Below are positions 2-20,000 of a stretch of 32,000 nucleotides of DNA, one piece after another. The DNA is taken from assembly GCA_964640155.1 (NCBI GenBank), contig CAZXEQ010000003.1, positions 104,189-136,188 on the forward strand. The letters are read 5' to 3'. The translations under genes were made by a program, and so were the position numbers. The notes beneath the pieces are model-generated. The model had not been told where the DNA came from, made no database searches, and worked only from the letters and a program-made list of their open reading frames with translations. Each line of letters starts with the position of its first letter. The first letter of the stretch is position 1. Source of the stretch: an uncultured bacterium (GTDB lineage Bacteria; Auribacterota; JACPWU01).

Positions 2-1000
2 CTACATCCACTAAGAGCCTTAGGAGTGCTTTCAGATGGGCGTATTGTGGCGGGTGGAACATGGGGGAAAATGACAGTTTATAATCCTAGTGATCCTAAG
101 GATGAAGGAGAAAGCTTAAGCGGTTATGATGGGACGATTCATGATATTCAAGTTCTTCCAGATGATTCCATTGTTGTCGTAGGCGCTGGAGGATATGTTA
201 AAAAGTTTGAACTCAAAGCCGGGTCAACTCCGCAATCTTTGGGTCGATATTATCAGTATGATGGTAGACAAATTATTTATAAGACAAGGCGTTTATCCAA
301 TGGCCATTATGTAGTTGTTGGAGAAGGTGGGGCTATTAAAATTTGTGATCCCAATTATCCAGACAGTGAACCTATTCTGGTCGGCCATTATGGAAAAGAT
401 GTTCACGCTCTTGAAATTTTGCCGGACGATACCATTGTAGTGGGTGGAGATGGAGGAGAAATTTTAGCTTTTGAACCCAAAGAAAATGCAAAACCTCATA
501 AATTTGGAAATTATGGGAATGATATTAACATGATTCGCTATTCACCTGCGGATGGAAAGATTTTGATAGGTGGAAGAAATGGAGTGTTAGCGTTTATTGA
601 AAAAGAGATGGTAGGAGTGATGTGCAGTGAAAAAGATTTCGTAAGCCCTATGGGTAAAAAATATTCTTTAGATCAAGTTTCTACAGATCAAGCCAAAGTG
701 TTCATTCCAATTCCTCATGTCACCGATGAAAATTTCTCAAGTGCAGTCACTCGCTTGCAAGCTGAGATTAAAACAGCAGAAGGGGCTGAAAAGAAGAGAT
801 TAGCTGAGGTTCTCATGCATGTTTTGAGGAAAGGGAAACCTGCCCAAAGAAAAGATGGATCCCCGATAGATACACTCGGGGATGACAAACACTCTGTACC
901 ACTGTCATTCCCGAAGGCTTTTATCGGGAATCCATTAGAAGATAAAAAATGGATTCAGTCCCAACAAAAGAAAGAAGAGCTAGGAGTGGGAGATGTTTTC
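2..1000 (+). repeat. Super-repeat module 1 (partial): 5 visible propeller blades plus linker 1, ending at GDVF
   Basis: Blades follow the pattern [AV]L.VL.DG.[IL]V.GG..G.[IL].[IVF][YWF][DN]P, e.g. VLSDGRIVAGGTWGKMTVYNP and ALEILPDDTIVVGGDGGEILAFEP. Linker 1 contains ...TDENFSSAVTRLQAEI... and ends LGVGDVF (GDVF at 989-1000). Confidence 0.75.
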
Positions 1001-4000
1001 AAGACTGAAGGGGTGTTTGTAGAAAGAGTTTCTATATCAGACCGATCACGCACAATAACAACTCAAGCTGTCTTACCCGATGGACGTATTGCTTATGGTT
1101 TTGCAGATGGGTGGGTTGAATTGTGGGATCCTAAGAAACCCCATTTGGGATTTAAAAGAATAGGACAATATGCTGTAGGAAGAGGCAATCAGGAAATCAC
1201 GGTTTTAAAAGTTGTGGCAGGAAAATTATTAATTGCTGGGAAGGCTGGATATCTTGAAGTGTGGGATCCGGAACAGCCTACTCAAAAACCTTGGTGTTTG
1301 GGAGATTACAAAGAAGAAATTTATGCGATTGAAGAATTAGATGGGGAAATTTTTGTCGGTGGGAAAGGAGCAGTTATTCGATATTGGACTTTGGAAGATT
1401 TAAAAAATAAAAAAGAGATTCAGGGAGAAGTTTTGGGACAGTATGGGCATGAATTTAGCAGTGTTTTTAGTTTTCTTGTTGTGGATGGAAAACTTGTAAT
1501 AGGGGGAGGTGTTCAACTAGAATTTTGGGATTCACAAGAGCCAGAGAAAAAAATTCAAAGTACAGCAATGCATGAAGGAGCCACACACGCTTTGCAATAT
1601 TTAGATGGGAAAATTGTTGCTCTTGATTCAAGTGGGCATATCCGTTATTGGGATAAATCTTCTTTGTATGCTCAAGAATCCCAAGTCCCTTATCCTATTG
1701 GAGAGTATGGTATGAAAGCTGAAGCAATGAAGGTTTTGGATGGGAAGTTGTATGTGGGAGGATATGGAGGAGAACTTAAAGTATGGGATCCAGAGAGCTC
1801 ACGAAAAGGTCTGCACAATATATTTCAGTATCAAAATGATGAAGGAGCAAAACCCGGAACAATGAATTATATTACAACTATTTCATATCTTGAAATAGTA
1901 AACGGTCGTTTGTCTATCATAGGCTCCTCTAACGGTGTTGGTGGGGTTACTCTCTTAGAATTTTCTCCAACCGGTGTGGTGAATAGCAAGAATACTTTTA
2001 GATCTCTAAAATCAGGAGTTGAACATCCCCTGTCAAAAATTTCTTCTGAAGAAGTGACCGTTTTAACCCCAGCTCCTCAAGTGGATCATGAAAATCTATC
2101 TAAAGAGGTTGAATCTCGCCAAATGAAAATGAGAACGCTGCAGGAGCAGGATTTTAAAGGAAGAACAGATTTGGCATTGGAGTTGGCCTATATTGCGAGA
2201 GAACATGGGGATAAGGCAGAGTGGATTGAGATAGAAACAAAGAAGGAAGATTTGAAAGTAGGAGAAATATTTGAAGCAGAAGTTTGTGCGGGGATAGAAA
2301 GACAGTTTTTACATCCATATCCAGGTAAAATACGTGCTCAGGCGCTTCTTCCTAATGGAGAGTTGGTGGTAGGAGGGGAAAGAGGAGAGTTGTGGATTTA
2401 CAACACTGGAGACCTTAATGCAATCCCAAGAAAGTTTAAATTTCGTTATCCGGCAGAAATTCATGCCATTAAAGTTTTAAAAGATGGACGTGTGATTGTG
2501 GCCGGGAAAGCTGTTGATTATATAAGCAAAGTATGGATTTATGATCCTATTCATACCGACGCAAGACCTATTCAAATTAAACATTATTCTGGAGGAGATG
2601 TGTATGCTCTTGAGCTTTTGAATAATAGTTTGGTTGCCATTCAAGAGAAAAATGAAATTAAAATTTATGATCCAGACAAACCAGATCAGGAGGCTAAAAA
2701 GTTTTCTTCTCCTTGTGCAGGTGGTGCTGAGATCATGAGATTGTTGAAAAATGGTTTATTAGCTGTTGGCAAGGGAGCGTCAGGAGGGGATGTTGAAATT
2801 TTTGATCCTGCTCATCTGGAAAAACCTTCTAAAGAGTTTGTTTATCGCTATGGAGATGTTGCTGCCATTGAATCTCTCAATGAGAAAGAATTAGCTGTTG
2901 CAGGATTGACAACGGGAGGATTTGGAAAAATAAAAATTTATAATCTTGAAAATTACGACGCAGAACCCCAAGAATTTTCTTTTCCTTATCCTGGACAAGT
3001 TTATGCTCTTCAAGCATGGGGGGATGATTATTTGGTTGCAGCAGGAAGTTCTGGTGTTGTTCTTCTCTATGATAGATGGGATTTAAAGAAGGATCCTGTT
3101 GAATTAGGACATCTAGATATAGAAGAAAAACAAAAACTCAAAAGAATCATTTTTTCATTACAAGTTTCACCTGAAGGACAACTATCGGTGGCAGGTGGCA
3201 ATGGAATCGTAAAAATTTTTGATTTAAAAAATAGAGGTATTGTCAGAGATCAAAACTCTTTTGTCTCTATAGCTACCGGAAAAGTTCATCCTCTAGACAG
3301 TGTTGTGTCGGACGCTGTAACTGCTCGCTCTATTTTGCCTTCCATTAATCCTGAAAATCTTGCTGATGAAATAAAACGTCGAGAAAATGAGATACGCACT
3401 ACAAATGATGAGAGAGAAAAAACAAGATTGGCCAAAGAAATAGAATTTTTGGTTAAAAAATATGGAAAAGAAATGAAATGGTTTGAAATGGAATCAGAGA
3501 AAGAAAAACTGAGAGAGGGTGATATTTTTAAAACGGAAGTAATGAATAAAACATTTCTTGATCCGGACGGTATTGGTTGTGAGGGTGTTGCCTTGCCTAA
3601 TGGTCAAATAGTGATAATAAAGCTTAGAGAATTAAGATTTTATAATCCTAATCACCCTGAAGCGCCTATAAAGACAATAAAAACAGAAAAAGCAATAAAC
3701 AGGATTGAGCTCTCAGCAAATGGGAATCTTGTTCTTTATGAGGCAGGAGACGTTATTGAAATTTATGATCCCATCCAGTACACCCGCTTAAACTTAATAC
3801 AGTTTCCCGGGAGTGCAGATGTTGATGATTTGCAATATTTGCCTGACGAAAGATTAATAGTTCGTGAGAGAAGAGGGGATATTTTAATTTATGATCTTCA
3901 AAATATTGAAAGCGAACCCTATCATTTGAAAAGAGGATATCCATTTTCTTCCGCCACGCAGGTTTTGCCGAATGGGCAGCTTTTGGTTAGAGAGAATAAA

Positions 4001-7000
4001 AAATTAAGGCTATATCAGTTACCTTCTAGAGAGGTGATGAGAGCGCGCGTCGAAAGCATGTTAGCCTGGCACGCATCCAAATGGAAGACACCCATGCCTG
4101 AATGGGATGACTCACTCACAGAATTAGGTAAGGATGATTCTATGATGGCATGTGTTATTTTACCTAATGGCAATATTGCTATAGGTACATATGAAGGACA
4201 GATCAAAATTTATGATATTCAAAATTTAAAAAAAGGGGATGTGCCTCCTCCACCTACGAGATTTGCTTATTTCAAAGGCAAAATTATAGAAATGGCCTTG
4301 TTGTCTCCTACACGTTTAGTTGTCGCTAGAGAAAATGGTTTATTGGAAATGTATGATTTAACTCGACCTGACTTACCTCCTAAACCTCTAGGGAATTTTG
4401 GCGGTGAAATACTTTCCCTTTCCGTGTTGAAGGATGGGAGGTTGATGGTTACGGGCGAGGGAGGAAAAGTCGAATTTCTGGAATTCAGTATAACCGGGAT
4501 TCTATTGCGAGATAAGACGTTTCGTTCTTTTGCAACAGGGCAGACTTATGATGTGAGCAATATCGTTTCTGACGCTGTGATGACGTTGCATCCAATACCC
4601 TACATAGACCCTGAAAATTGGAAAGAAGAAGTAGAAAAACGCATTCATGAAATGAAATTGGCTCAAAGTGAACATGAAAAGAAAAGATGGGGTTTGGAAG
4701 CAGTGCATATTGTTAGAGAACATGCAGACAAAATGGAATGCGATAAGAAAGATCTTAAGCCCGGTGATGTATTTGAGATGAGAGCCATGATTCAGCAAAA
4801 AAATGATTCAAAAGACACGGTTTTTACCCAAGCGATTCTTCCAGATGGGCGTGTGGTATATGGTGATGAAGGAGAATTAAAAATTTATCATCCAGATGCT
4901 CCTCATGAATTATTCCAATCTATTCCGTTCTCTCAATTTGACTCTGTCCAGGATTTGCAAGTTGTTGAAAACAAACTTTATATGATAGATCGAAATGCGA
5001 ATCCCTATCTTTATCTTTATGATTTTTCTGAATCAGGAAAGGGAGTTCAAAGAGTAAAGCACGAGTTTAATAATGGAAAAATCTATGGTGTTTGGTCTCT
5101 GAATGGAAAGATTTATGTGGCGAATGATAAAGGAGAAATTTATGTTTGTGATTTCTCCGAAGGTCCACTTAAATTTAAACCTTTGGAAAATGGCAAAACA
5201 GAGATGTTTGTAGACTCTATGCAATGGTTGAATGGAAAGCTTTATGTGAGTGGACATACGGAAGATGGATCAATGGTAGCTATCAGTATGGGTTTAACTA
5301 CAACATACAGACATGTGAAAGTATATGATCCTGATCATCCTCAACAAGGATTTCGAGATATTAAAGTTATGGGCAAGAATGATGTTTCTTTTTCAAATTT
5401 ACAAGTTTTAGATGGGAAAATTTATATGGGAGTCTCTGGCAAAGGATTGACAGTCTTTGATCCTCAAAAACCAGATGATGGATTTTTGCTTTTGAATGGA
5501 TGCGAATATCGTCATTCAATCAGACATGTACGCGTTATGAATGGAAAACTTGTAATGGCTGGAGAAAAAGAAATTTTGATTTATGATCATAAAAATCCTT
5601 CTCTGGGACTTCAAAAGTTAGCTGAAATTACAGAGTTTATTTTTAGCTTAGAGGTATATGACAATACAAGAATTGCTGTAGGGTTAGGTAATCAACAGAT
5701 TCTCTTAAAAATAGATGCGATTGGTATGGTGATGGAGGGTGAAAAGTTTGTAGATGTGGAAAGTGGTAGAGAGTATGCATTACAGGATGTTTGTGGGGAA
5801 CGTGTAGCGGTACATTTGTCTATACCTGCGATTACATCTGAAAACTTTGTGGATGAGGTGAAGAGACGGCAAGCGCAGATGGTGACAGAATCGGATGAAA
5901 GAGAAAGAAGGTGTTTGGCGGAGGAGTTGAAGAGGGTTTTAGGGAAAGATTTTAGTGAAAAGGGATGGACTCCAGAAGAGAAAGTAAAAGAGGCTTTGAT
6001 GCCAGGAGATGTGTTTAAAGTAGATGTAATTGCGAAGACATTGATTGAAGGAGATGGAGTAGATATTTGGACGGGTATTGTTTTGAAAGATGGTCGAGTG
6101 GCTGTCGCAAAAGGAGATAAAGTATTTATTCATAACCCACAAAAACCGGAGGCTCACCCCATAGAGATTCCAGCTACTCATTTGGTCAGGGCGATAGAAG
6201 AGTTACCTGATGGTCGGCTTGTTGTTTCAGGGGTGTCAGAAATGGTGACAATACACAATACTCTCACACCAAATCGCTATGTTCAGTTTACGCATCTTTA
6301 TGGGGATGAAGTTAATGCCATTAAACTTTTACCCAATGATCTTTTGGCTGTAGCTGGAAGAAGTGGAAAAATTCTTATCTATGATCTCAAAGATTTAACA
6401 AGAAGGCCTTACGAATTAAAGAAAGATGATAATCGAACCATTTTCGTCTTAGAGGTTTTACCCAATGGAACTCTTTTTGTCGCGGACTACATGGGAAGGG
6501 CAAGTATTTATTCAATTCCAGGCCAAGAAGTTTTTAATCAGCAGTCGATGGAGTCTCAAACTACACCAGATTATTTAATTGCTGAGTTAGAAACTTATGG
6601 GATACCAAAATTGGGAGGTTTAGAGTGCACATCCATTCACTCTTGCGCGCTTTTACCAGATGGAACTCTAGCACTGGGAGGAGATGGTGGGGAGATTTTT
6701 ATTTATGATGTTTCAAAAGTTAGAAAAGGTGAGAGGCCGCCGAAACCTAAAAGACTGATAAATTTTGGTGGCAATATTAGAGCGATGACTTATTTATCTC
6801 CACATCATCTTGTTGTGGCTGGAGCAAGTGGTGCAGTAAAGATTTATAATTTAAACCATCCAGAACTTCCTCCTCGAGAAATATTTAGTTATGGAAATTG
6901 GGTTAAGACATTGAAAGTATTGGAAGATGGTAGGTTATTGATAGCAGGTTTTGGAGGGGAAGCCGTGATTTTAGAATTAAACGTGTTGGGACTAATGACA

Positions 7001-10000
7001 GGGGATAAAACTTTCGAATCTCTTCAGACAGGGGAGAGTTATCGATTGGATGATGTTCAAAGTTCAAAGGTTCAGAGATTAGAGGTGAAGGAAACAGTTT
7101 CTAGAAATGTGGTGTCATCGCGAGTCCCCCGACGTAGTATCGGGGGACGTGGCGATCTCGTAGATGGGATTGCTTCGTCAGCCGATAAATCGGCTTCACT
7201 CGCAATGACGGAGTCAGAGCAAAAAACTAAAATCACAGAAGCTTTAGATGCTCCATTCACTCCAAAATATCCTAGCCTACCTTTTTATTTTGCTTTAGGT
7301 GAGGATGGAATTGTTTATCTCAATTATCAGGGACGATGGTATCCGACGAAGCATAAAGCAGTCACCAGTCGCCAGTCTTCAGTCGTCAGTGAAAACAACA
7401 GTGAGACGATTTATTATGAAACTGTCATTCCGGCGAAGGCCGGAATCCAAACCTCTCTGGATCCCGGATCGCGCTCGCATTTAGCTCGCTTGTCCGGGAT
7501 GACCAAACAAAAAGTTCGACTTCTGCAGCTTTCTGACATTGTGCATCCATTGGAAAGAATGGATTCCCGATTGAAACCTTCGGGAATGACAGGAGGAGAA
7601 CGGACACTTATCCCTCGGGATTTTTTGATGGAGACAGAAGTGTTGAAGGGTGTAGAGGCTTCTGTTTTGAAGGCGTTTCAAAGAGGTTGGGCTGTTGATT
7701 TAGAAGGTGGACCGGGTGGCGGAAAAACAAGTATGGCCCGTGAAGTGGCTCTTCTTCTGGGACTTCCTTCCTATGTTTTTCAAATGCATGGTCAAAGGAC
7801 ATTATCAGATTGGATTGGGGGATATAGCGAAGATGGCAAAGGTCATTTAACTAGGAACAATCTTCCCAATGATGAAGGTCATTTCCGACAAGAATTGCTA
7901 GAGGCCATTACGCATGGGGGTGTTTATGTTGTAGATGAGGGCGCCGTTGGAAAAAAAGGACGTGAACTTTTAAATTGGTTGGCTCCATTGTTAAGAGCTT
8001 TAAGGACTCGTGGTGATGGACGTAAAATTTTTCTTCATGAATTTCCAACTTTGGCGAAAGAATTAGGTATAGAAACCCCCCTGGAAATATCTTTAGATTT
8101 TCATTTGGTGATCACGAATAATAAAGCGGGTGAAACTCAAGCCCGTGAAGTGATGAAAAGTGAGGTAGCAACAGAAGTAGTATATGTTGATGTAGATGAA
8201 GATGATGGGCCTGAAACGTTGCAGAGGTTATTCCTTCATTTTACGCAAGATTTAGGGGTTGATGCAACCATAAAAGAAAATCTTGCAAAGCATTTAAGTG
8301 AATTTCATTGGGCTTTGAAAGAGAGAATTGGAAAAGATTTGGGGGTCGATGATAAAGATAGACATTATCTTTCTAAAAGAGAAATTCGTAGGGCTGCACG
8401 TCTGATGCGTTGGGCTCATTCTCAGAACTCGGAAGCGGATCCCGTTTTTGATTTTTATGTATCTTTAAGAATTGCCTATGAATCCATGTTTACTCATGCT
8501 TGGGAAAAAGATGAGGTTGAGAGAATTTTAAGAGAAAAAATTGAGAATATAGAGTCGGGCAGTTATGAGCGTGTGACCAAGAAATTTGACACTTTAAAGG
8601 AAAAAGCATTTGGTAAAACCGTCAGATCTAAAATTGTGACAGGCCCGGAATTAGAAGAGGCTTTTTTAACAAAAATGAGTATGGAGGCCGGAGAACCGGT
8701 GCTTCTTTTGGGGGAATTAGGGGCACGTGTTTCAGATGTTGTTCGTCGAGTCTCTGAAGAATTAAATGCAGAAGTAAATATTATTGATGCAGATCCTCAA
8801 CAATCTCGTCAGGAAATTCTGGGAGGGCCTTTCCCAGATGTTCGACAAGGAAGTAGTAAAAATATTGCACATATCTTGGGTAAGTTGGTTCAGCATTTGA
8901 TGACCAAAGAACAGATGGAAGCTTTAGAAAGTGCAGGAGAAAAACTACACCCTCAAGTTTTGTGGATTCGAAATATTGATTTATGGAGTGAAGATTTAAG
9001 AACCGCCTTAAATGGATTTTTGGAGGATGGATATATTCGTTTAGAAAAAGGTGACGGTACGATAGAGACTTATTATCGTCCCTCTCATGTTCACATCATT
9101 GCAGACATGGGTTCAGAGTCCATACAAGATTTTTCAAGCGCCTTTTTTAATCGCTGGGTGAAAATAGGAATTTCTAGAGAGAATCCTCCTGAAGACTGGA
9201 TTTATTCCAAGCCAGAGGTTTTGGGTATGCTGAGCAAGAAAGCAGAAAAACAGGCGGAACAGTTGATTGTTGCCGTTAGGGATGCAAAAGTTCTTTTGCC
9301 GATGGAGGGAGGTTTTTATCGTTTTAATCCAGAGCTTAATTTGGAAAATTTTCCTCAAAGTCTCAAAGGCGAAAAAATTTATACTCAATTCTTGAGATCT
9401 TTAAAAACTAAAAATCAACTTTCTGATTTTGAAAAAGTATTGGTGAATCGTTTTGGCATGAGCCTTCGAGAAGCGGAGGACTTGACCCGATTGTATGTTT
9501 CTTTGATGGATATTGATTCAGCTCAAGGGGCGCAGCGCTGGAAGGGAGAAGCCCATTATGGTTTTGGCCCCACTTTGTTCTATGCTTTAGCAGAATCGAT
9601 TCAAATGGCCAAACGTGAAGATTCTAAAATTTTAGCTTTAGAAAGACAATTAAGAGAACAGTATGACGTAAATTTTGAACATGTTTTGATTCATGGACCT
9701 CCTCCGGGTTCTTCAACAGATGCAATCGATCTTTATAAAGCTTATATTTCTGCTTTAAAGAAAATGATGGCAGAAGAAATTTTAAGAATTATTGGTACAA
9801 GATTAAAACCTTTGGATCGTCCTGATTTTGAACAACTTCTTCATTCAACATTAGATTTGGAAGTTCCTCCTGGGCTCAATACTTCTGTTCATACCACGAC
9901 GGGTACACTGGAAGGTCAGGTTACTCGTATCGGCAATGTTGCTCTTCAGGCTAGAGAAGGGGCTAAAGGCCCTCTAGAAGTTTCTAAAGATCATCGTGTT

Positions 10001-13000
10001 AGGTACGGTGGCCAATCTGTAGAAGAGGGCTTGGCTGTTCTGGCTCGTGCTTCACAGCTTGGAAAGGCTGTAGCTTTGGTGGGTGAACCGGGTGTCGTAA
10101 AAACTACTTTAACGGGACATTTTGCAGAAATTACAGGGAGGAAATATTATAAGTTTCAATCTCATAAAAAAAGTCGTGTGGAAAATCTTACATTTGAAGT
10201 AGAGCAGGAAGCAGATGGGACTTTCCATAAGAAAATTCAAGAGCTTTATCAATATCTTCGCGAAGGAAATGTAGTCATTGATATTGATGAAGCGAATGCT
10301 CAACCCGAAATTCTTTGGCTTTTAGGTCCTGTCTTAAGAGGTGAAGAATGGATTTATCCCATTTTTCCAGGAGAGCCTCCTTTTAAAATAGGCAGAGGAG
10401 TACAACTTGTATTTACCTATAATCCAGCTCATTTTTCAGGTCGAAGTGAAATGGATAAGCGCATTTTAGATTTAATGATTGTGGCATGGCTTGAACCTCC
10501 TAAAAAAGAAAATAAACCAGCTATTACTGAAACTTTCTGGGGTGTTTGGGCTGAAAAAGTTGCAAAAGTTGAAGAAGATAAGTTTCCTCAAAGATTTGAA
10601 GTTCATGTACCACCGGTTGAAATGCCGGCTGATTTAGCAAAAGATGTTGGTTATGATCATGCAAGGATTCATGAAACGATTACTTCTTTTGATCAAACTA
10701 CGAATCAAACAGATAAAGTAGACATTTTCTTGAAAGTTTTACCTGAATACTTTTTAGCTTTGGCTAATCGGGATGGAGCTAGATATGATCAAGACATGCT
10801 CCGTATGGCTGCTATTTTAGATGGATTTTTAGCAAGGTCAGGTCAGGAAAGCAGAATCGTTAGAGATCTTGAAGTTCTACAAAAAGAATATCATCGCTCT
10901 TCTCCCGACAAAACTCGATTACGCTACGGCATATTAGAATTTAGAAAACATTTTTTAAAATTTGATCGGCATTTGATTATTTTTATGTTCACTCCCAAAA
11001 ATCGTACAGTTCCATTTTTGCGCATTTATCCCAATAAGATTTTAGATCGAATCACCCTTTCACATAAAGAAGGATGGGAAACCAGTGGAGAAGCTCTGGT
11101 GATTGAAGGACATGGATTGGAGAAAGGAAATAAGATGGGCTATTTTGATGGAGAATATGCTCTCGTCAATACCCCTAAGACAGGAGGCGTAAAGCATATT
11201 CAAACAGAATGGACGGCCCACCATGAATTAGGGCATCGAAATGATCAAGCCCCGCATAAAACAATTCCTAAAAATATTGAAATGAACTCTATGCTCAGTC
11301 CACTTATGCATTCTAGAGAAAAGAAAAATTATATTGAGGAAGAATTGGCTGGTTGGGTGTCGAGTGGACAGAACAATTCTTATTATACTCAAGCATCAAA
11401 AGGAATATTGAATGGGCTTGTACAAAGATGGTGGGAGTTGAATAAGACAACAGGGAGACCTCCTCAAATTGATGATGTATTTGCAGATGCTGATATTAAA
11501 GCAGTATTAGATTTGGTTCTCACGATGGATGAAGCGACATTAGAAAGTTTAGCTCTTTATCTTTACGATCATCCTAGATATCTAGAAAGCGGCCAAAAAG
11601 GGGCTTATAAACAACGCGTGTCTACGGGAACTGCAGAGCAGGGGGGTGGAGAAGAAGAAATTATGGAAGGAGTGGATGGAGAAATTGAAGTCGATGTTGA
11701 AATGGTGGAAGGAGGAGCCACTCCGGAAGTAAATGTATCAAACCCAGAAGGTTCGGATACGGTTCAAGAAACGAGTGGTGAAAATCTAACTCCTGAAATG
11801 GAAGCTCGTCGCCAAAAAGATTTAGAAAAACAACATCGCAAAACTGAAGACCTGAAGAAAAAGTTAGAAGAAGAAACAAAAGCCTCTGGAACGGAATACG
11901 ATCAAATGATCATGGGAGGACAAGGTCAGGCTGAAAGCATTTTTGACAGGATATTACGCGCGTTTCGATCTAAACGTAAAACAATTACCATTCGTTTAAG
12001 ATCCGGTTTAGAAGTAGATCCTATTGCTCATATGCTCAGACTCTATAATCGATTTATCAAACGTGAAGAAGTTTTTGACATGCAAACACATGCTGTTTCT
12101 GTTTTGATGGATTTTAGCGGAAGTTTGGCTCCTTTTAAGAAACAGATAGCCTATGCGGTGCGGGCGATTGGAGATAATTTTTGGAAATTGAAATGGGCAG
12201 CTTCTCGCCATTTTTATTTTGATTTATCGTTTTATACAGGAGCGGATCCCGTTACTATGATGGAAATGGGCAGGCTTTATTCAGAATCAGAATGGAAAGA
12301 TAATTGTGTCAAAATGGGAAGACAAATCGGAGATGGAGACAATAATTTACTCAATGCTCTGAGCAAAAAATTGAAGGATTTCGTAGGGTCAGATGTAAAA
12401 GCGGATGTACGCCGGGCAAAGCTTAAAACTTTGATTTTGTTTACGGACGGTCAAGATACTGCAATTATCGGTGGTGATAAACCCATACCTTCAAGAGAAT
12501 TTCAACAGGAGTTAAATCGGTATCGCGCTTTAGGAATAGAAATTTTTGCGATCGGATTTGGAGCAGGGGCAAAGCCTGTTGAAGCTTTTCATGGAAAAGG
12601 ACAACATTTTATCAAGATCGGTGCCCAGCGTCCTTATGATGTACCGGAAGTCATTGCAAAAATTATGGAAGCAAGATCGCGTGGATTAGGAATGATTCCT
12701 GATGGAGATGTCACTCATTTTTTTGGAATTGATGAGAAGGGTGCTCCTCAACTTACGCCAGAAGAAACACAAGCATCACCACAGTCTTTTTCTTCGTCTT
12801 CGCCAAGCTCTACTGGGGGAGGCTCATTTGCACGCATGCTTCCTCCTGAAGCCAGTGTTGCGCAAATGGTTGTAAGTGGTTCAAAAGTCATAGAATCTTT
12901 GCCAGGTTCAGAACGCTCAGGAGCCACTCGTGTTATCGTTGATGCCATAGCTGAAAAAATGAGAGCTGCTTCGGATTATGCTCATAGTGTTGTAAGGGGA

Positions 13001-13063
13001 CTGCCTTCGACTCAATCTAGAAAAGTATCCTCAAGAGAAGTTGTTTTAGATCAGGCTGCTTAG
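2..13063 (+). CDS. Giant multidomain protein, 5'-partial (>4,350 aa visible): >=6 tandem WD40-like 7-bladed beta-propeller modules, 3 AAA_5 (MoxR/midasin-type) ATPase modules plus one vestigial P-loop, acidic linker, C-terminal VWA/MIDAS domain
   Basis: One frame is open from nt 2 to the TAG at 13061-13063. The track start (GTG at 26) lies inside a propeller blade: nt 2-25 translate LHPLRALG, continuing into VLSDGRIVAGG, which matches the blade consensus. The ORF therefore continues upstream of the window. Motifs read from the translation: Walker A GGPGGGKT (7706-7729), Walker B VYVVDE (7922-7939), Walker A GEPGVVKT (10082-10105), Walker B VVIDIDEA (10271-10294), MIDAS DFSGS (10110+2000 region, exactly 12110-12124). 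Confidence 0.9.
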   Translation, partial: LHPLRALGVLSDGRIVAGGTWGKMTVYNPSDPKDEGESLSGYDGTIHDIQVLPDDSIVVVGAGGYVKKFELKAGSTPQSLGRYYQYDGRQIIYKTRRLSNGHYVVVGEGGAIKICDPNYPDSEPILVGHYGKDVHALEILPDDTIVVGGDGGEILAFEPKENAKPHKFGNYGNDINMIRYSPADGKILIGGRNGVLAFIEKEMVGVMCSEKDFVSPMGKKYSLDQVSTDQAKVFIPIPHVTDENFSSAVTRLQAEIKTAEGAEKKRLAEVLMHVLRKGKPAQRKDGSPIDTLGDDKHSVPLSFPKAFIGNPLEDKKWIQSQQKKEELGVGDVFKTEGVFVERVSISDRSRTITTQAVLPDGRIAYGFADGWVELWDPKKPHLGFKRIGQYAVGRGNQEITVLKVVAGKLLIAGKAGYLEVWDPEQPTQKPWCLGDYKEEIYAIEELDGEIFVGGKGAVIRYWTLEDLKNKKEIQGEVLGQYGHEFSSVFSFLVVDGKLVIGGGVQLEFWDSQEPEKKIQSTAMHEGATHALQYLDGKIVALDSSGHIRYWDKSSLYAQESQVPYPIGEYGMKAEAMKVLDGKLYVGGYGGELKVWDPESSRKGLHNIFQYQNDEGAKPGTMNYITTISYLEIVNGRLSIIGSSNGVGGVTLLEFSPTGVVNSKNTFRSLKSGVEHPLSKISSEEVTVLTPAPQVDHENLSKEVESRQMKMRTLQEQDFKGRTDLALELAYIAREHGDKAEWIEIETKKEDLKVGEIFEAEVCAGIERQFLHPYPGKIRAQALLPNGELVVGGERGELWIYNTGDLNAIPRKFKFRYPAEIHAIKVLKDGRVIVAGKAVDYISKVWIYDPIHTDARPIQIKHYSGGDVYALELLNNSLVAIQEKNEIKIYDPDKPDQEAKKFSSPCAGGAEIMRLLKNGLLAVGKGASGGDVEIFDPAHLEKPSKEFVYRYGDVAAIESLNEKELAVAGLTTGGFGKIKIYNLENYDAEPQEFSFPYPGQVYALQAWGDDYLVAAGSSGVVLLYDRWDLKKDPVELGHLDIEEKQKLKRIIFSLQVSPEGQLSVAGGNGIVKIFDLKNRGIVRDQNSFVSIATGKVHPLDSVVSDAVTARSILPSINPENLADEIKRRENEIRTTNDEREKTRLAKEIEFLVKKYGKEMKWFEMESEKEKLREGDIFKTEVMNKTFLDPDGIGCEGVALPNGQIVIIKLRELRFYNPNHPEAPIKTIKTEKAINRIELSANGNLVLYEAGDVIEIYDPIQYTRLNLIQFPGSADVDDLQYLPDERLIVRERRGDILIYDLQNIESEPYHLKRGYPFSSATQVLPNGQLLVRENKKLRLYQLPSREVMRARVESMLAWHASKWKTPMPEWDDSLTELGKDDSMMACVILPNGNIAIGTYEGQIKIYDIQNLKKGDVPPPPTRFAYFKGKIIEMALLSPTRLVVARENGLLEMYDLTRPDLPPKPLGNFGGEILSLSVLKDGRLMVTGEGGKVEFLEFSITGILLRDKTFRSFATGQTYDVSNIVSDAVMTLHPIPYIDPENWKEEVEKRIHEMKLAQSEHEKKRWGLEAVHIVREHADKMECDKKDLKPGDVFEMRAMIQQKNDSKDTVFTQAILPDGRVVYGDEGELKIYHPDAPHELFQSIPFSQFDSVQDLQVVENKLYMIDRNANPYLYLYDFSESGKGVQRVKHEFNNGKIYGVWSLNGKIYVANDKGEIYVCDFSEGPLKFKPLENGKTEMFVDSMQWLNGKLYVSGHTEDGSMVAISMGLTTTYRHVKVYDPDHPQQGFRDIKVMGKNDVSFSNLQVLDGKIYMGVSGKGLTVFDPQKPDDGFLLLNGCEYRHSIRHVRVMNGKLVMAGEKEILIYDHKNPSLGLQKLAEITEFIFSLEVYDNTRIAVGLGNQQILLKIDAIGMVMEGEKFVDVESGREYALQDVCGERVAVHLSIPAITSENFVDEVKRRQAQMVTESDERERRCLAEELKRVLGKDFSEKGWTPEEKVKEALMPGDVFKVDVIAKTLIEGDGVDIWTGIVLKDGRVAVAKGDKVFIHNPQKPEAHPIEIPATHLVRAIEELPDGRLVVSGVSEMVTIHNTLTPNRYVQFTHLYGDEVNAIKLLPNDLLAVAGRSGKILIYDLKDLTRRPYELKKDDNRTIFVLEVLPNGTLFVADYMGRASIYSIPGQEVFNQQSMESQTTPDYLIAELETYGIPKLGGLECTSIHSCALLPDGTLALGGDGGEIFIYDVSKVRKGERPPKPKRLINFGGNIRAMTYLSPHHLVVAGASGAVKIYNLNHPELPPREIFSYGNWVKTLKVLEDGRLLIAGFGGEAVILELNVLGLMTGDKTFESLQTGESYRLDDVQSSKVQRLEVKETVSRNVVSSRVPRRSIGGRGDLVDGIASSADKSASLAMTESEQKTKITEALDAPFTPKYPSLPFYFALGEDGIVYLNYQGRWYPTKHKAVTSRQSSVVSENNSETIYYETVIPAKAGIQTSLDPGSRSHLARLSGMTKQKVRLLQLSDIVHPLERMDSRLKPSGMTGGERTLIPRDFLMETEVLKGVEASVLKAFQRGWAVDLEGGPGGGKTSMAREVALLLGLPSYVFQMHGQRTLSDWIGGYSEDGKGHLTRNNLPNDEGHFRQELLEAITHGGVYVVDEGAVGKKGRELLNWLAPLLRALRTRGDGRKIFLHEFPTLAKELGIETPLEISLDFHLVITNNKAGETQAREVMKSEVATEVVYVDVDEDDGPETLQRLFLHFTQDLGVDATIKENLAKHLSEFHWALKERIGKDLGVDDKDRHYLSKREIRRAARLMRWAHSQNSEADPVFDFYVSLRIAYESMFTHAWEKDEVERILREKIENIESGSYERVTKKFDTLKEKAFGKTVRSKIVTGPELEEAFLTKMSMEAGEPVLLLGELGARVSDVVRRVSEELNAEVNIIDADPQQSRQEILGGPFPDVRQGSSKNIAHILGKLVQHLMTKEQMEALESAGEKLHPQVLWIRNIDLWSEDLRTALNGFLEDGYIRLEKGDGTIETYYRPSHVHIIADMGSESIQDFSSAFFNRWVKIGISRENPPEDWIYSKPEVLGMLSKKAEKQAEQLIVAVRDAKVLLPMEGGFYRFNPELNLENFPQSLKGEKIYTQFLRSLKTKNQLSDFEKVLVNRFGMSLREAEDLTRLYVSLMDIDSAQGAQRWKGEAHYGFGPTLFYALAESIQMAKREDSKILALERQLREQYDVNFEHVLIHGPPPGSSTDAIDLYKAYISALKKMMAEEILRIIGTRLKPLDRPDFEQLLHSTLDLEVPPGLNTSVHTTTGTLEGQVTRIGNVALQAREGAKGPLEVSKDHRVRYGGQSVEEGLAVLARASQLGKAVALVGEPGVVKTTLTGHFAEITGRKYYKFQSHKKSRVENLTFEVEQEADGTFHKKIQELYQYLREGNVVIDIDEANAQPEILWLLGPVLRGEEWIYPIFPGEPPFKIGRGVQLVFTYNPAHFSGRSEMDKRILDLMIVAWLEPPKKENKPAITETFWGVWAEKVAKVEEDKFPQRFEVHVPPVEMPADLAKDVGYDHARIHETITSFDQTTNQTDKVDIFLKVLPEYFLALANRDGARYDQDMLRMAAILDGFLARSGQESRIVRDLEVLQKEYHRSSPDKTRLRYGILEFRKHFLKFDRHLIIFMFTPKNRTVPFLRIYPNKILDRITLSHKEGWETSGEALVIEGHGLEKGNKMGYFDGEYALVNTPKTGGVKHIQTEWTAHHELGHRNDQAPHKTIPKNIEMNSMLSPLMHSREKKNYIEEELAGWVSSGQNNSYYTQASKGILNGLVQRWWELNKTTGRPPQIDDVFADADIKAVLDLVLTMDEATLESLALYLYDHPRYLESGQKGAYKQRVSTGTAEQGGGEEEIMEGVDGEIEVDVEMVEGGATPEVNVSNPEGSDTVQETSGENLTPEMEARRQKDLEKQHRKTEDLKKKLEEETKASGTEYDQMIMGGQGQAESIFDRILRAFRSKRKTITIRLRSGLEVDPIAHMLRLYNRFIKREEVFDMQTHAVSVLMDFSGSLAPFKKQIAYAVRAIGDNFWKLKWAASRHFYFDLSFYTGADPVTMMEMGRLYSESEWKDNCVKMGRQIGDGDNNLLNALSKKLKDFVGSDVKADVRRAKLKTLILFTDGQDTAIIGGDKPIPSREFQQELNRYRALGIEIFAIGFGAGAKPVEAFHGKGQHFIKIGAQRPYDVPEVIAKIMEARSRGLGMIPDGDVTHFFGIDEKGAPQLTPEETQASPQSFSSSSPSSTGGGSFARMLPPEASVAQMVVSGSKVIESLPGSERSGATRVIVDAIAEKMRAASDYAHSVVRGLPSTQSRKVSSREVVLDQAA
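859..931. repeat. Two 8-bp-stem palindromic hairpin units lying in frame inside linker 1 of the giant ORF
   Basis: ATCCCCGA(859-866)/TCGGGGAT(876-883) and ATTCCCGA(907-914)/TCGGGAAT(924-931), both perfect inverted repeats read directly. They encode ...SPIDTLGDDKHSVPLSFPKAFIGNP..., a ~30-aa stretch with no counterpart in linkers 2-5. Confidence 0.7.
1001..2272 (+). repeat. Super-repeat module 2: 7-bladed WD40-like propeller plus linker 2
   Basis: Seven blades, each ending in W/Y-D-like dipeptides (VELWDP, LEVWDP, IRYWT, LEFWDS, IRYWDK, LKVWDP, TLLEF). Linker: GVVNSKNTFRSLKSG...DHENLSKEVESRQ...LKVGEIF (GEIF at 2261-2272). Confidence 0.75.
2273..3529 (+). repeat. Super-repeat module 3: 7-bladed propeller plus linker 3
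   Basis: Seven blades (LLPNGELVVGGERGELWIYNT ... SPEGQLSVAGGNGIVKIFDL). Linker: GIVRDQNSFVSIATG...NPENLADEIKRRE...LREGDIF (GDIF at 3518-3529). Confidence 0.75.
3530..4774 (+). repeat. Super-repeat module 4: 7-bladed propeller with a ~40-aa insert between blades 4 and 5, plus linker 4
   Basis: Blades LPNGQIVII..FYNP ... LKDGRLMVTGEGGKVEFLEF. Insert: PSREVMRARVESMLAWHASKWKTPMPEWDDSLTELGKDDSMM. Linker: GILLRDKTFRSFATG...DPENWKEEVEKRI...LKPGDVF (GDVF at 4763-4774). Confidence 0.75.
4775..6016 (+). repeat. Super-repeat module 5: 7-bladed propeller plus linker 5
   Basis: Blades with an [DN]GK[IL][YV] signature as in module 2 (LNGKIYVANDKGEIYVCDF, LDGKIYMGVSGKGLTVFDP, MNGKLVMAGEKEILIYDH). Linker: GMVMEGEKFVDVESG...TSENFVDEVKRRQ...LMPGDVF (GDVF at 6005-6016). 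Confidence 0.75.
6017..7110 (+). repeat. Super-repeat module 6: 7-bladed propeller with a blade 4/5 insert as in module 4, and a truncated linker 6
   Basis: Blades LKDGRVAVAKGDKVFIHNP ... LEDGRLLIAGFGGEAVILEL. Its last three blades align with module 4 (KGERPPKPKRLINFGGNIRAMTYLSPHHLVVAG vs KGDVPPPPTRFAYFKGKIIEMALLSPTRLVVAR). Linker 6 starts normally (GLMTGDKTFESLQTG). The helical ...EN...E..R...GD[VI]F half is missing and the hairpin-rich spacer stands in its place. Confidence 0.7.
7125..7587. repeat. Cluster of five palindromic hairpin units (same stem family) lying in frame between the propeller array and AAA-1
   Basis: Perfect stems: TCCCCCGA(7125-7132)/TCGGGGGA(7140-7147); ATTGC..AGCCGAT/ATCGGCT..GCAAT (7169-7206); ATTCCGGC(7427-7434)/GCCGGAAT(7439-7446); ATCCCGGA(7461-7468)/TCCGGGAT(7493-7500); ATTCCCGA(7563-7570)/TCGGGAAT(7580-7587). 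The region is visibly more GC-rich than its surroundings and is open in several frames on both strands (track ORFs 7072-7260-, 7299-7484+, 7425-7607-, 7481-7681-). Confidence 0.7.
7640..8420 (+). other. AAA_5-type ATPase module 1 (intact Walker A/B) of the giant protein
   Basis: GGPGGGKT (7706-7729), hhhhDE VYVVDEG (7922-7939), sensor-1-like VITNN, and a downstream lid helix LSKREIRRAARL. These match the MoxR/CbbQ/midasin AAA_5 pattern. Confidence 0.75.
8695..9175 (+). other. AAA-like module 2 with degenerate nucleotide-binding motifs
   Basis: PVLLLGELGARVS replaces Walker A (no GK[ST]). VLWIRNIDLWSEDL replaces Walker B. A C-terminal SSAFFNRWVKI resembles the AAA_5 '..A...RF..i' end. Probably a non-hydrolysing module. 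Confidence 0.5.
9692..9718 (+). other. Vestigial P-loop-like motif HGPPPGSST (possible remnant of another AAA module)
   Basis: VLIHGPPPGSSTD resembles hhhhGPPGxGKT but lacks the Lys. No Walker B is recognisable downstream. Confidence 0.25.
10028..10503 (+). other. AAA_5-type ATPase module 3 (intact Walker A/B)
   Basis: AVALVGEPGVVKTTL (Walker A 10082-10105), VVIDIDEAN (Walker B 10271-10294), sensor-1-like LVFTYNP, and terminal DKRILDLMIVAWLEPP. Confidence 0.75.
11641..11885 (+). other. Acidic D/E-rich segment followed by a K/E-rich helix, immediately upstream of the VWA domain
   Basis: GGGEEEIMEGVDGEIEVDVEMVEGGATPEVNVSNPEGSDTVQETSGENLTPEMEARRQKDLEKQHRKTEDLKKKLEEETK, read directly from the translation. 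Confidence 0.8.
12085..12680 (+). other. C-terminal von Willebrand factor A (VWA) domain with a MIDAS motif
   Basis: VSVLMDFSGSL (DxSxS at 12110-12124), LILFTDGQDT (~12431-12460) and IFAIGFGAG match the canonical VWA strand/MIDAS pattern. Confidence 0.8.
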
Positions 13064-17094: not shown

Positions 17095-20000
17095 ATGAAT
17101 ACTCAGATGAGTTGTTTGTATAAAAAAATTGTATGCCTTTTGGTGTTTCCTCTTGTTTTAACTCAAGCGATGGGCTCTCCTTCTCTGGAGGAAAATTCTC
17201 AAGAAAATTCAACGAGCACAGACTTAAGTGAAATATATTTCCCTTCGAAAATTGGAGTTGTGACTGATTCCTATCAAAGTACAAAAAATCAAACAACTAT
17301 TTTTTATATCAAGGATATTCATTGCAATCTAGAAGGTCAGCTTAATATTTCTAAAATGATTGAAGAGCTTTCAAAAAAACAGAGAATTCAACTTGTCTTG
17401 GTTGAGGGTGCTCAAGGAAAAGTTCAGACCGATCTCTTGGGCTGTTTCCCAGATTCAAAGATTCGGAAAAAGGTGAGTAGAAAATTTTTGGCGAAAGGTT
17501 TTATCAGTGGGTGTGAATACCTTGCAATTTCAAAATTTAATAAAATTCCTATTCACATCTATGGCATTGAAGATGAGCAACTTTATCTTAAGAATTATTA
17601 TTTTTTTAAAGAAGTTTATGAAAAAGCAAGTGATACTAATCAATTTATGAACGTTTCGAAGATATTCATTCAAAGGTTAAAGAGAAAAGTTTTTAATAAA
17701 AAGCTTTTGAAAGTCGATCACGATTGGAAGGAGTATCAAGAAGGGAAATTAGCTTTGGTGAAATTTGTTAAGACTCTTTCTCGAGAAGAATGGAATAACC
17801 GTGCGTCTCCTAATCTTGTAAAACTTTTGAAGATTTTATCTGTTATAAATCAGAAGAATCCTTCTCTCTTGGAAAAAGAACATAGATCTTTTATTCAAAG
17901 ATTAAGTCAAATTCTATCTGCCGATCAGACACAAGTTCTTATCAAGTTAATTCTAAAAAAGAGGTTGAGTAAAATTTCAGATGAAGAATATTTTTCAAGA
18001 TTAAAAAATATTCTTCCATCAAATCACATCACAAGACTTCGTAATCAATTTTCTGTTCTTTTTGGGGTTTTTGATTTGCATCGCTTCTTGAAAGAAAAAA
18101 GTGAGAAGTTGGCTTTAGAGTTAGAGGATGCTGTAGATTTATTGTTTGAGAGGCTCGCAAAAACAGAAGAAGAAAAAAATCTACTTAATCTTTCTTTAAA
18201 ATTAGAAACTTTAGAAAAAGCTTTAACATTAACTCTTTCTAGAAAAGAATTTGAGAAAGAAGGTCAAAATTTTGATCTCGATCAGTTTATTCAACATTTA
18301 GAAAGTCTCTATAAAAAGCAAAGCGATAATTTTTCTGTAAATAAAATTGATTTTTTATGGATGAAAAAAATGAAAGGACTTGTTGAATCTGGGAAGTCTT
18401 TTTATCGACTTGCTTTAAAAAGAGAAGATCAAATGGTTCAAAATGCGCTTCAGAAAATAAAAGAGGAAGGTGTACAAAAGGCTATTTTGATTGCTGGAGG
18501 CTTTCATTCTCAGGGGTTGATGGAAAAATTGAAAAAACGAGGTATTTCTTGTATTGCTATAATGCCAATACTAAAAAAGAGAGATGAGGGGCATTTGTAC
18601 TTAGAACGAATGCTGTCTCAAAACATCAACTTAAAGTTTATTCAAAATTTTTCTATTTCTTCTCTTTCAGTTCTAGATCTTCTTTCAGATACAGCTTCTA
18701 ATGATGATGATCGAACAGAATTTTTAAGAAGTTTTTTTCATTATATGGTTACATTTTATGGAGCAGATTCCTTAGATGATGAAGAAACAGTTATTCATCG
18801 ATGGCGGCAACAGGTTATTGCCCTTCATTCAGAATTATTATTAGACTTTAATCAAGTGGTGGAATCTTTATTGTTTTTAGCAAAGACCATTGCTTTGGGT
18901 CAAAGAGAAATTGTGCATGTTTTAAAAGATTCGTTAGGGAATCAAAAGAAAATGTTGCAAATGAAAGTTATTCTTTCGTTTTTGTATCGAGAGCAACTGT
19001 CTGTCTATGATGAGATAAAGTTAAAGATCGATCATCCTAGCCTTATAGCTTATATGACACAATTAGAGGAAAGTCATTACATCACAAATCGATTTGGAGT
19101 TTGGGAGGTTTCAGATGATACAAGAAATGATAGAGATTCTACAGATGTAAGTGCAACAGCTGATCTTTTAGGTGAAGACAATATTCTCGCAGAGAGTGAT
19201 TCAGGTATGGGAGTGGCGTATCGCATTAACGAAGGTCGTGCTATTTCTGAGCGGGAAAGATTAGAAGAAGTTTTTAGTATTCTTTCTAATTTTTGTAAGG
19301 CAAAACCTCGAATTCCATGGATTCAAATACAAACGGATCATCGAGGGAAATATCTTTATTTTTGTGGTTCTCGAATTCTTAGTATAACGCCAAAAACTTT
19401 TTTGAGGGATGCAGCGGTGTCGTTTTTTATCAGAGATGCCGATCATGTGGAAATAAGAAAAGGAGGCGTAAGCTATATTTTAGGAACTACGGGGACGATG
19501 GATATTTTAGAGGATGATATTTCTACCGTTTCTCATGCAAAGACTTTATTGAGAAGACAAGTACAGCGCTTAAGATTAATTCATGAAGATAAAATACAAA
19601 TTAGAAATTATTGGGAAGCGTTTTGCCGTTATTTTCAGGATAAAGCTTCGGAAGGGAGTCCATATCGACATGCAATTGTAGCTTTTTTTATAGATGAGAT
19701 TTTGAAAAATTTAAGTCGACAGGCTCCGCCTGAAATTCTAGGTTATGCCTTAGTGGTTTTAGATCAGCTGAGAGAAAAAATTTTAGAACTCGTAACTGAG
19801 AAAGAAGAGGAGGGGAATTTTGAAAATCAAGCTTCTTTTCGTTATGTCATTCGTTTTTGTGGATATTCCCTTTTAGGTTATACGCAATATCGTTTTTTTA
19901 TTCCTATGGAGTCTTTAGACCAGACCATTGCTCCAATCACTCAAGTAACTGCGACCTTATTAGAATCTCTTTTGAATGAACCACAAATTGCAAGAACTTC

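Follow-up and report, generated by a model that had tools for sequence, protein, structure and literature searches.

A giant bacterial protein with six AAA_5-type modules, a WD40-type propeller array and a terminal VWA/MIDAS arm, related by sequence to midasin

Dynein and midasin are the textbook single-polypeptide hexameric AAA+ rings, and their layout has so far been described only for these eukaryotic proteins. We analysed 32,000 nucleotides (nt) of DNA from an uncultured bacterium of the Auribacterota (assembly GCA_964640155.1, contig CAZXEQ010000003.1, positions 104,189 to 136,188 of the forward strand; this whole stretch is called the window below), in which the first 13 kb are taken up by part of one giant gene of 20.7 kb. 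The window holds the C-terminal two-thirds of a bacterial protein of 6,910 amino acids (aa), of which 2,557 codons lie further left. The protein extends the MoxR/midasin class of single-chain AAA+-MIDAS machines by a new, bacterial variant, where MIDAS denotes the metal-ion-dependent adhesion site of a von Willebrand factor A (VWA) domain. We give a probability of about 0.6 to the reading that it works as a single-chain AAA+ machine of the MoxR/midasin/dynein class that remodels, and possibly cleaves, a client. The first-pass annotation of this DNA had proposed a single-chain bacterial remodelling machine with AAA_5, acidic and MIDAS parts fused to propellers; that fusion was borne out, but the propeller array lies within the AAA chain and there is no long linker.

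The gene was delimited by its reading frame and by comparison with a longer protein. A single frame of 4,353 codons is open on the + strand from position 2 to a stop at 13061-63, with its left end beyond the window edge, as expected from the earlier observation of an uninterrupted frame of more than 13 kb. G+C content in the window is ~38-42%, and a frame of this length is too long to be due to chance in DNA of 38% GC. When 1.84 billion representative proteins were searched exhaustively with a profile, a protein of 6,910 aa, P0005, was recovered, whose last 4,353 aa are 100% identical to the window translation; P0005 and the window GlpK are encoded by one NCBI contig of 357 kb. The frame seen in the first-pass annotation is real, but the protein is not one of ~4,350 aa. 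P0005 also supplies the true N-terminus that an upstream extension was meant to find: the 2,557 upstream aa comprise a Sec-like leader, a conserved N-domain of ~500 aa, an AAA_5 block recognised by Pfam, one full propeller and the first 2 blades of the propeller cut by the window edge. Windows of ~30 kb can therefore cut giant genes enough to hide half of a motor. That the long frame is an artefact of assembly or annotation is a negligible prospect in our view. Repeated modules are able to mislead assemblers, and P0005, coming from the same contig as the window, is not independent of it. However, propeller pairs within the window protein are only 20-33% identical, and DNA repeats in the window do not exceed 31 nt and tandem repeats are absent, so that repeat-driven mis-assembly was rejected as unlikely. 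Collinear proteins of 3,400-7,600 aa are moreover found in independent metagenome-assembled genomes (MAGs) of several phyla.

2..13063, + strand: 3' part of the giant gene, 4,353 codons and the stop of the 6,910-aa gene (identity to P0005)

The motor part of the chain was defined by Pfam, alignment and profile comparison. A search of the region 7640-12680 with Pfam models, proposed with the original prediction, found AAA_5 twice as well as VWA. The AAA_5 matches are at aa 2567-2710 (module C1) and aa 3357-3491 (module C3) of the window protein, at 77.8 bits overall and above the cutoff; a third, degenerate AAA module, C2, is present near aa 2880-3060. In an alignment with four homologues, the G-x-x-G-x-GKT and DE of C1 (Walker A GGPGGGKT, Walker B DEG) were invariant, as were the Lys/Thr and DE of C3, which has a variant Walker A (GEPGVVKT) and the Walker B DEAN. 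Walker A Lys/Thr, Walker B Asp-Glu, the sensor-1 Asn and one Arg are all invariant in both C1 and C3. In C2 both motifs are gone in every aligned member (the window protein has GAR for GKT and RNID for DE), yet the degenerate form is conserved, and it gives a weak match to the P-loop region of midasin AAA2. The AAA_5 modules with intact Walker motifs reported at first pass thus stand for C1 and, as a plausible variant, for C3, but not for C2.

The upstream block of P0005 contains three further AAA_5-like units, N1-N2-N3, with a P-loop only in the middle one, N2. Comparison of all six modules using hhalign separated two classes. The active-type modules matched one another with probabilities of 99% (N2 and C1), 98% (N2 and C3) and 97% (C1 and C3), and the degenerate-type modules with 98% (N1 and N3), 97% (N1 and C2) and 89% (N3 and C2), while comparisons between active-type and degenerate-type modules stayed below 3%. 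As judged from these profiles, the module order is D-A-D-[propellers]-A-D-A (D, degenerate-type; A, active-type), a strict alternation along the chain.

By sequence, the chain belongs to the MoxR/midasin/dynein (helix-2-insert, Pfam AAA_5) lineage of AAA+ proteins. The model of C1 has strands at 74-77 and 83-87 that lie, after beta-2, between two helices, and its beta-4 is preceded by a pair of strands; their placement fits the helix-2 beta-hairpin and pre-sensor-1 inserts, at a local predicted local distance difference test score (pLDDT) of 41-56. An AlphaFold model of C1-C2-C3 reached a pLDDT of 78 and a predicted template modelling score (pTM) of 0.77. Its top 50 matches in the PDB were all dynein motors, including the dynein AAA1-AAA3 fragment 7z8h, over ~1,000-1,050 columns with E~1e-25 and a template modelling score (TM) of 0.5-0.57. 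Since the model matches dynein motors over ~1,000 columns, modules 4-6 are predicted to pack as half of a single-chain, dynein-like ring. The segment-wise structure prediction and Foldseek search envisaged at first pass thus gave dynein for the C-block, and, for the VWA domain described below, NorD and the midasin MIDAS. The AAA region of the window is laid out as follows.

7601..8635, + strand: AAA module C1 (aa 2534-2878), fourth of six, active-type, Walker A at aa 2569, with helical lid (Pfam AAA_5, alignment, model, hhalign)
8636..9190, + strand: AAA module C2 (aa 2879-3063), fifth of six, degenerate-type (alignment, hhalign, alpha/beta core in the model)
9191..9880, + strand: helical region between C2 and C3 (aa 3064-3293), C2 lid and extension (secondary structure of model m7254ff08a417)
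9881..10585, + strand: AAA module C3 (aa 3294-3528), sixth of six, active-type, Walker A variant at aa 3361 (Pfam AAA_5 47 bits, invariant columns, model)

The chain ends in an arm that carries a VWA domain. The first-pass annotation had read a terminal VWA domain with a DxSxS motif, and this was confirmed by Pfam, marginally (24.2 bits against a cutoff of 23.8), by an AlphaFold model with Foldseek matches to NorD and to the MDN1/Rea1 MIDAS, and by the invariance of the motif. The best PDB matches of the VWA domain were NorD (1.9e-7), then the VWA domains of the apicomplexan adhesins TRAP and MIC2, the MDN1 MIDAS (8e-6) and the Rea1 MIDAS (1.9e-5). A midasin-type long linker was not found ahead of it. 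The ~320 aa between C3 and the acidic stretch are instead a conserved HExxH...E domain that had been overlooked, which has no match in midasin and contains the single HExxH motif of the window protein (at aa 3741). Among ten diverse family members, H-E-x-x-H, N and E are invariant in this first arm domain, as are D-x-S-x-S and T-D in the VWA domain. The D/E-rich stretch noted earlier is real but short: the only one in the window protein comprises ~60 residues (aa ~3870-3930, 30% D/E), not hundreds. In the AlphaFold model of the arm (746 residues, mean pLDDT 76), a well-predicted HExxH domain is followed by a disordered acidic tether and the VWA domain. The HExxH domain itself (pLDDT ~90) was modelled as a beta-sheet ahead of the HExxH helix, with the conserved N-x-E on the helix after that, an order that fits a gluzincin. 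Given its motif and model, 'unannotated, zincin-like domain' is the most apt description; in relatives, Pfam gave one borderline match to Peptidase_M60 and one to Peptidase_M78. In a Foldseek search of a viral structure library, CobT-like proteins aligned over 600-758 columns, that is, the whole arm. On the models, the tail resembles an arm of the CobT/NorD type rather than the midasin linker.

10655..11602, + strand: zincin-like HExxH domain (aa 3552-3867), HELGH at aa 3741-3745 = nt 11222-11236, N-I-E ~20 residues on (invariance, model)
11609..11788, + strand: acidic, predicted-disordered tether (aa 3870-3929), 30% D/E, pLDDT <50
11792..12727, + strand: helical lead-in and VWA/MIDAS domain (aa 3931-4242), DFSGS at aa 4037-4041 = nt 12110-12124, T-D at aa 4148-4149 (Pfam VWA, invariance, Foldseek)
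12728..13060, + strand: Ser/Thr/Pro-rich, low-confidence C-terminal tail (aa 4243-4353) (translation; pLDDT <50 from model residue 715)

The remainder of the window protein is a propeller array. A blade hidden Markov model (HMM) built from the protein itself counted 40 blades in six groups (5+7+7+7+7+7), in agreement with the ~40 WD40-like blades in 6 modules noted at first pass, and Pfam WD40 matched the window protein at 48.8 bits (cutoff 27). Each blade group is followed by a conserved linker of ~110 aa. By these profiles the array is made of WD40-type 7-bladed propellers, five of them complete in the window. In full-length P0005 there are seven 7-bladed propellers, and the array of ~3,000 aa lies between AAA modules 3 and 4. 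The propellers had been viewed as a platform ahead of the motor. Since three further AAA_5-like modules lie upstream of the window, the array is an insertion within the six-module AAA chain and not an N-terminal platform.

2..637, + strand: propeller 1 (aa 1-212), 5 of 7 blades, the rest upstream (blade HMM; P0005 continues upstream)
638..1042, + strand: linker 1 (aa 213-347), with a palindromic-element insertion in frame at nt 855-935 (linker alignment; inverted repeats)
1043..1996, + strand: propeller 2 (aa 348-665), 7 blades (blade HMM; Pfam beta-propeller/WD40)
1997..2311, + strand: linker 2 (aa 666-770), F-x-S-x-x-[ST]-G ... P-x-[IV]-x-x-E-N ... G-[DE]-[IV]-F (blade/linker alignment)
2312..3259, + strand: propeller 3 (aa 771-1086), 7 blades (blade HMM; best Pfam WD40 stretch at aa 1050-1074)
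3260..3589, + strand: linker 3 (aa 1087-1196) (blade/linker alignment)
3590..4519, + strand: propeller 4 (aa 1197-1506), 7 blades (blade HMM)
4520..4804, + strand: linker 4 (aa 1507-1601) (blade/linker alignment)
4805..5746, + strand: propeller 5 (aa 1602-1915), 7 blades (blade HMM)
5747..6076, + strand: linker 5 (aa 1916-2025) (blade/linker alignment)
6077..7012, + strand: propeller 6 (aa 2026-2337), 7 blades (blade HMM; best Pfam stretches WD40_CDC20-Fz and EML_2)
7013..7600, + strand: last linker and the PFYF...LNYQGR...T-x-HK motif leading into the AAA block, with palindromic insertions at 7424-7503 and 7560-7590 (alignment, hairpins)

The PFYF...LNYQGR...T-x-HK motif is kept in the relatives P0001, P0003 and P0004. 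The three palindromes (855-935, 7424-7503 and 7560-7590) form small nested hairpins in frame inside the giant open reading frame (ORF) and are translated as 'SFPKAFIGNP', 'VIPAKAGIQ...SGMT' and 'DSRLKPSGMT'. Their core, GTCATTCCSG ... CSGGAATGAC, has 8 copies in the window against 2.1 expected. These insertions are missing from all homologues and from the sister linkers, and similar peptide signatures ('PLKLRGV', 'EIASPTARNDT') were seen in the upstream part of P0005. They resemble the in-frame palindromic elements known from Rickettsia.

The family to which the protein belongs comprises ~82 representative clusters at E<=1e-30, nearly all of 3,000-7,600 aa, and diverges to 25-45% identity. Module HMMs mapped onto 152 proteins gave the plan N1-N2-N3-[insert]-C1-C2-C3-(HExxH)-VWA. 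The six modules are contiguous in many members (for example P0058 and P0088, propeller-less relatives of ~3,000 aa, and P0050 and P0067); the insert is located between modules 3 and 4 in the subgroup of the window protein and between modules 4 and 5 in others (P0024, P0026 and P0036). In members without propellers, Pfam independently finds AAA_5 together with an above-cutoff VWA. Family members are encoded by MAGs that GTDB assigns to Auribacterota, Elusimicrobiota, Omnitrophota and Planctomycetia, and also turn up in metagenomes of the Joint Genome Institute (JGI); every cluster comes from uncultured members of these or related lineages. The orthologue search suggested at first pass therefore returned relatives from several bacterial phyla, and the architecture is no one-off, as ~80 sequence clusters share the plan. 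One Planctomycetia MAG (CAYSJU01) encodes two paralogous family giants, L004 and L007, each of more than 4,300 aa. In P0003 / L005 (Elusimicrobiota MAG), which has canonical WD40 repeats, a transglutaminase-like domain (precomputed PF01841) replaces the HExxH-VWA arm. No Pfam or NCBIfam family covers the giant protein (NCBIfam gave only sub-threshold GvpN and Lon P-loop matches), no PADLOC model matches either half, and no description of a bacterial or prokaryotic midasin or dynein was found in the literature, where an earlier passing mention in older papers is possible. This upholds the remark made at first pass that the combination was not recognised as a described family.

P0005 starts with a Sec-type leader, …FLLSSIPELNEPLWA followed by QT, and similar leaders are present on the relatives L002, L007 and L011. 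Inspection and a hydropathy scan, used in place of a trained predictor, placed the sites (marked by a slash) at LWA/Q in P0005 and L011, VWA/D in L007 and TQA/M in a stand-alone paralogue of the N-domain. The leader is the only hydrophobic segment in P0005, and several relatives likewise have no second one; the Sec-like leader and the lack of a second hydrophobic segment together predict export. The N-domain that follows (P0005 aa ~60-560) heads at least 13 family members and gave no Pfam, NCBIfam or PDB match. Its motifs 'IFLIRDLHC', 'VFIEGA' and 'LIAGGFHTEG' bear a putative likeness to those of TraB/TIKI/ChaN-type domains.

17095..20118, + strand: stand-alone N-domain paralogue, 1,007 aa, with its own Sec-like leader (…VLTQA/MG) (BLASTP to P0005)

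The product of this ORF aligned with P0005 aa 79-553 at 29% identity over 493 aa (BLASTP, E=6e-45) and is a possible partner of the giant protein; it had no Pfam, NCBIfam or PDB match. The ORF is unannotated and lies in a low-GC stretch (31-34%), and the C-terminal ~500 aa of its product match nothing. The other neighbours are housekeeping genes: lpdA, lipA, a moeB-like gene, an aldo-keto reductase gene, sodC, bioD, thiL, tsaE, a tsaB-like gene, alr and glpK. No metal-centre client operon (nor, cbb, cob) is nearby. The window GlpK is 63% identical to its best named match, which comes from a Chlamydiota MAG. A gene for a DUF6941 protein at 27452-27853 (+) overlaps by ~50 nt the start of a 357-aa ORF at 27801-28874 (+), which has no Pfam match, and a 123-aa ORF at 26913-27284 had no match.

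How such a chain might work can be modelled on the published NorQ-NorD mode, in which the VWA domain inserts a finger into the pore of the ring and is rotated by ATP-driven movements of the subunits, which also stretch the arm formed by N-terminal domain, linker and VWA; according to the same work, midasin docks its MIDAS in the same mode. On this model, the six modules of the giant would together form a single closed pseudo-hexameric ring, whose three ATP sites would occupy positions 2, 4 and 6. The tethered VWA domain would dock on the ring in the manner of NorQ-NorD and midasin, with an acidic client residue held by its MIDAS metal. ATP-driven ring movements would then pull or twist the arm and so remodel the client. 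Looping out of the ring between positions 3 and 4, the propeller array could hold a client or a surface multivalently, and the zincin-like domain may cut the captured client, making the protein a MoxR-vWA-peptidase triad in one chain. The transglutaminase-like domain that P0003 has in place of the HExxH-VWA arm fits the published association of MoxR, vWA and transglutaminase-like peptidases. Midasin clients are WD40 propeller proteins bound via an acidic residue on a small domain; more speculatively, the propellers of the giant and the conserved linkers containing E-N, being part of one chain with the MIDAS, could be its intramolecular ligands.

Several results weigh against a remodelling and cleaving machine of this kind. 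At the ATP sites, the P-loop of C3 is atypical, with V where G is normal before K, and the Walker B of N2 is S-E instead of D-E; the degenerate modules N1, N3 and C2 are recognised by profile comparison only, C2 also by the model. Ring closure across an insertion of ~3,000 aa is something that we infer. The window sequence of the HExxH domain has no significant Pfam relative (E<=1), a profile search of the domain against the PDB gave no match at E<=10, and in Foldseek results for the whole arm, which were dominated by VWA matches, the HExxH fold was never matched separately. No window neighbour has a homologue at any of 14 related loci, and no client was found. Finally, the export predicted from the leader is hard to reconcile with an ATP-dependent motor.

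The last point leads to the reading of the giant as an exported surface or effector protein, in which propellers and VWA serve as adhesins and the ATPase either operates only in places with ATP, such as a host or prey cell, or is vestigial. The Sec-like leaders have n-h-c organisation and A-x-A-like sites on P0005, L011, L007 and the stand-alone N-domain paralogue, and with only one hydrophobic segment in the protein they fit export; VWA domains and propellers are also common adhesion modules. Symbionts and predators abound in the host lineages (Omnitrophota, Elusimicrobiota, Chlamydiota-like), and a preprint links giant proteins of such lineages, which carry AAA_5, to prey attack. However, in three modules the Walker A/B, sensor-1 and Arg positions have stayed invariant across the family despite 25-45% identity, which speaks for a functional ATPase, neither a secretion-system signal nor a cell-wall anchor was seen, and the leader was called by inspection and hydropathy scan only. 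We consider export of this kind unlikely. Much the same low likelihood applies to a fused MoxR-vWA conflict (anti-invader) system, with propellers that sense, an AAA-VWA threshold switch and an HExxH or transglutaminase-like peptidase as effector. The described MoxR-vWA ternary systems do carry vWA-fused propellers and peptidase effectors, one Planctomycetia MAG has two paralogues, and the varying position and content of the insert and the swapping of the C-terminal module (HExxH-VWA, VWA alone or transglutaminase-like) are typical of conflict systems. Yet PADLOC matched neither half, the gene stands among housekeeping genes (lpdA, lipA, moeB, sodC, bioD, thiL, tsaE) with no conserved neighbour and no third component, and described systems use a single-module, homo-hexameric MoxR rather than a six-module chain.

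It is also conceivable that a eukaryotic midasin gene was captured, remodelled in a host-associated bacterium and still serves in ribosome assembly. Outside the family, no proteins are nearer to it than midasins, and the closest named GlpK of this genome is from a Chlamydiota MAG; Chlamydiota are known for eukaryote-like genes. But the family is deeply diverged across several free-living and uncultured phyla, it has neither the linker nor the extended D/E region of midasin, its CobT/NorD-type arm includes an HExxH domain, and three of the six modules are of a degenerate class with no clear midasin counterpart. Bacteria are also not known to have the ubiquitin-like (UBL) clients Ytm1/Rsa4. A captured midasin is thus very improbable. 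The reverse direction, in which this family would be the prokaryotic sister of the eukaryotic midasin/dynein motor, or an ancestor-like relative of it, and in which six-module concatenation and the tethered MIDAS arm arose in bacteria, can be put forward only tentatively. According to the literature, the six-AAA chain derives from a single-module MoxR and dates from early in eukaryotic evolution. If the bacterial origin were true, the joining into a single chain, as three repeats of a two-module unit, would have taken place in lineages of the Planctomycetes-Verrucomicrobia-Chlamydiae (PVC), Elusimicrobiota or Omnitrophota type and not in early eukaryotes, which would have inherited or acquired a ready-made single-chain ring. 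The bacterial family also gives trees of dynein and midasin a prokaryotic comparator with which to root them, and one for studying the evolution of single-chain rings, degenerate sites and tethered VWA 'hands'.

Among known systems, midasin (Rea1/MDN1) is the one closest by sequence to the single-chain machine proposed here. A profile of the core against the PDB gave midasin as the best match (2e-29), followed by NorQ (6e-5) and McrB (5e-4), and matched S. pombe Mdn1 in one 370-residue stretch at 1.8e-18. In the search of 1.84 billion representatives, the tier directly below the family consisted of eukaryotic midasins of 4,800-5,500 aa with six modules at midasin spacing, among them P0091, which scored 2,485 bits against yeast Rea1. 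By sequence, midasins are therefore nearest both among solved proteins and among all groups outside the family that were searched, and the kinship seen at first pass holds. Both midasin and the giant have six AAA_5 modules within a single polypeptide, and both carry a C-terminal MIDAS/VWA domain (D-x-S-x-S ... T ... D) that comes after an acidic region; the modules of midasin likewise alternate in two classes. This alternation was seen in midasin modules of P0089-P0150, with hhalign values of 270-330 among AAA1/3/5, 220-256 among AAA2/4/6 and mostly 150-230 between classes, which suggests a triplicated two-module unit in midasin. When the bacterial modules were compared with midasin AAA1-6, every active-type module resembled every midasin module; N1 matched best with AAA1 and N3 preferred odd-numbered modules, while N2, C1, C2 and C3 had no collinear preference. 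In contrast to midasin, the giant is bacterial, has no ~1,700-aa linker (stem, middle, top), and has an acidic stretch of ~60 aa against ~600 aa; since the long linker and the long D/E region both fail, the protein is not filed as a midasin. It further differs in the zincin-like HExxH domain before the MIDAS, the seven-propeller array of ~3,000 aa between modules 3 and 4, the strong degeneration of three modules, and the Sec-like leader with an extra N-domain.

With dynein motors, the giant shares the mixing of active and degenerate modules in one chain, and the C1-C2-C3 model superposes on half of the single-chain ring. No stalk/microtubule-binding domain, buttress or N-terminal mechanical linker was detected in the bacterial protein, whereas its VWA arm has no equivalent in dynein, and dyneins were not among the best 150 sequence matches. 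NorQ-NorD, CbbQ-CbbO and CobS-CobT are of the same AAA_5 clade. NorD is the best structural match of the VWA domain, and the whole arm, with its N-domain, flexible linker and VWA, is matched from one end to the other by CobT-like proteins. These systems use six copies of a one-module ATPase and a separate VWA protein, whereas the giant has six non-identical modules and an arm fused in one chain, and unlike the arms of NorD and CobT, its arm has an N-domain with an invariant HExxH...E. The MoxR-vWA-YebA triad, where YebA is a transglutaminase-like peptidase, and the MoxR-vWA propeller ternary systems of the Aravind group, in which propellers fused to vWA and peptidase effectors have been described (Kaur et al. 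2020), are built of the same parts: a MoxR ATPase, vWA, a peptidase and a beta-propeller. P0003, with a transglutaminase-like domain at its C-terminus, resembles the triad further. Where the ternary systems (Kaur et al. 2020) have separate genes for a single-module MoxR and for a vWA-propeller protein, with more components linked to them in a neighbourhood of conflict type, the giant shows one gene, no PADLOC match, housekeeping surroundings and no conserved neighbour. The triad and the ternary systems are multi-gene operons with a single-module MoxR, whereas the giant is one six-module gene that brings every part of the MoxR-VWA-peptidase theme together in one molecule, making it an attractive target for cryo-electron microscopy and biochemistry.

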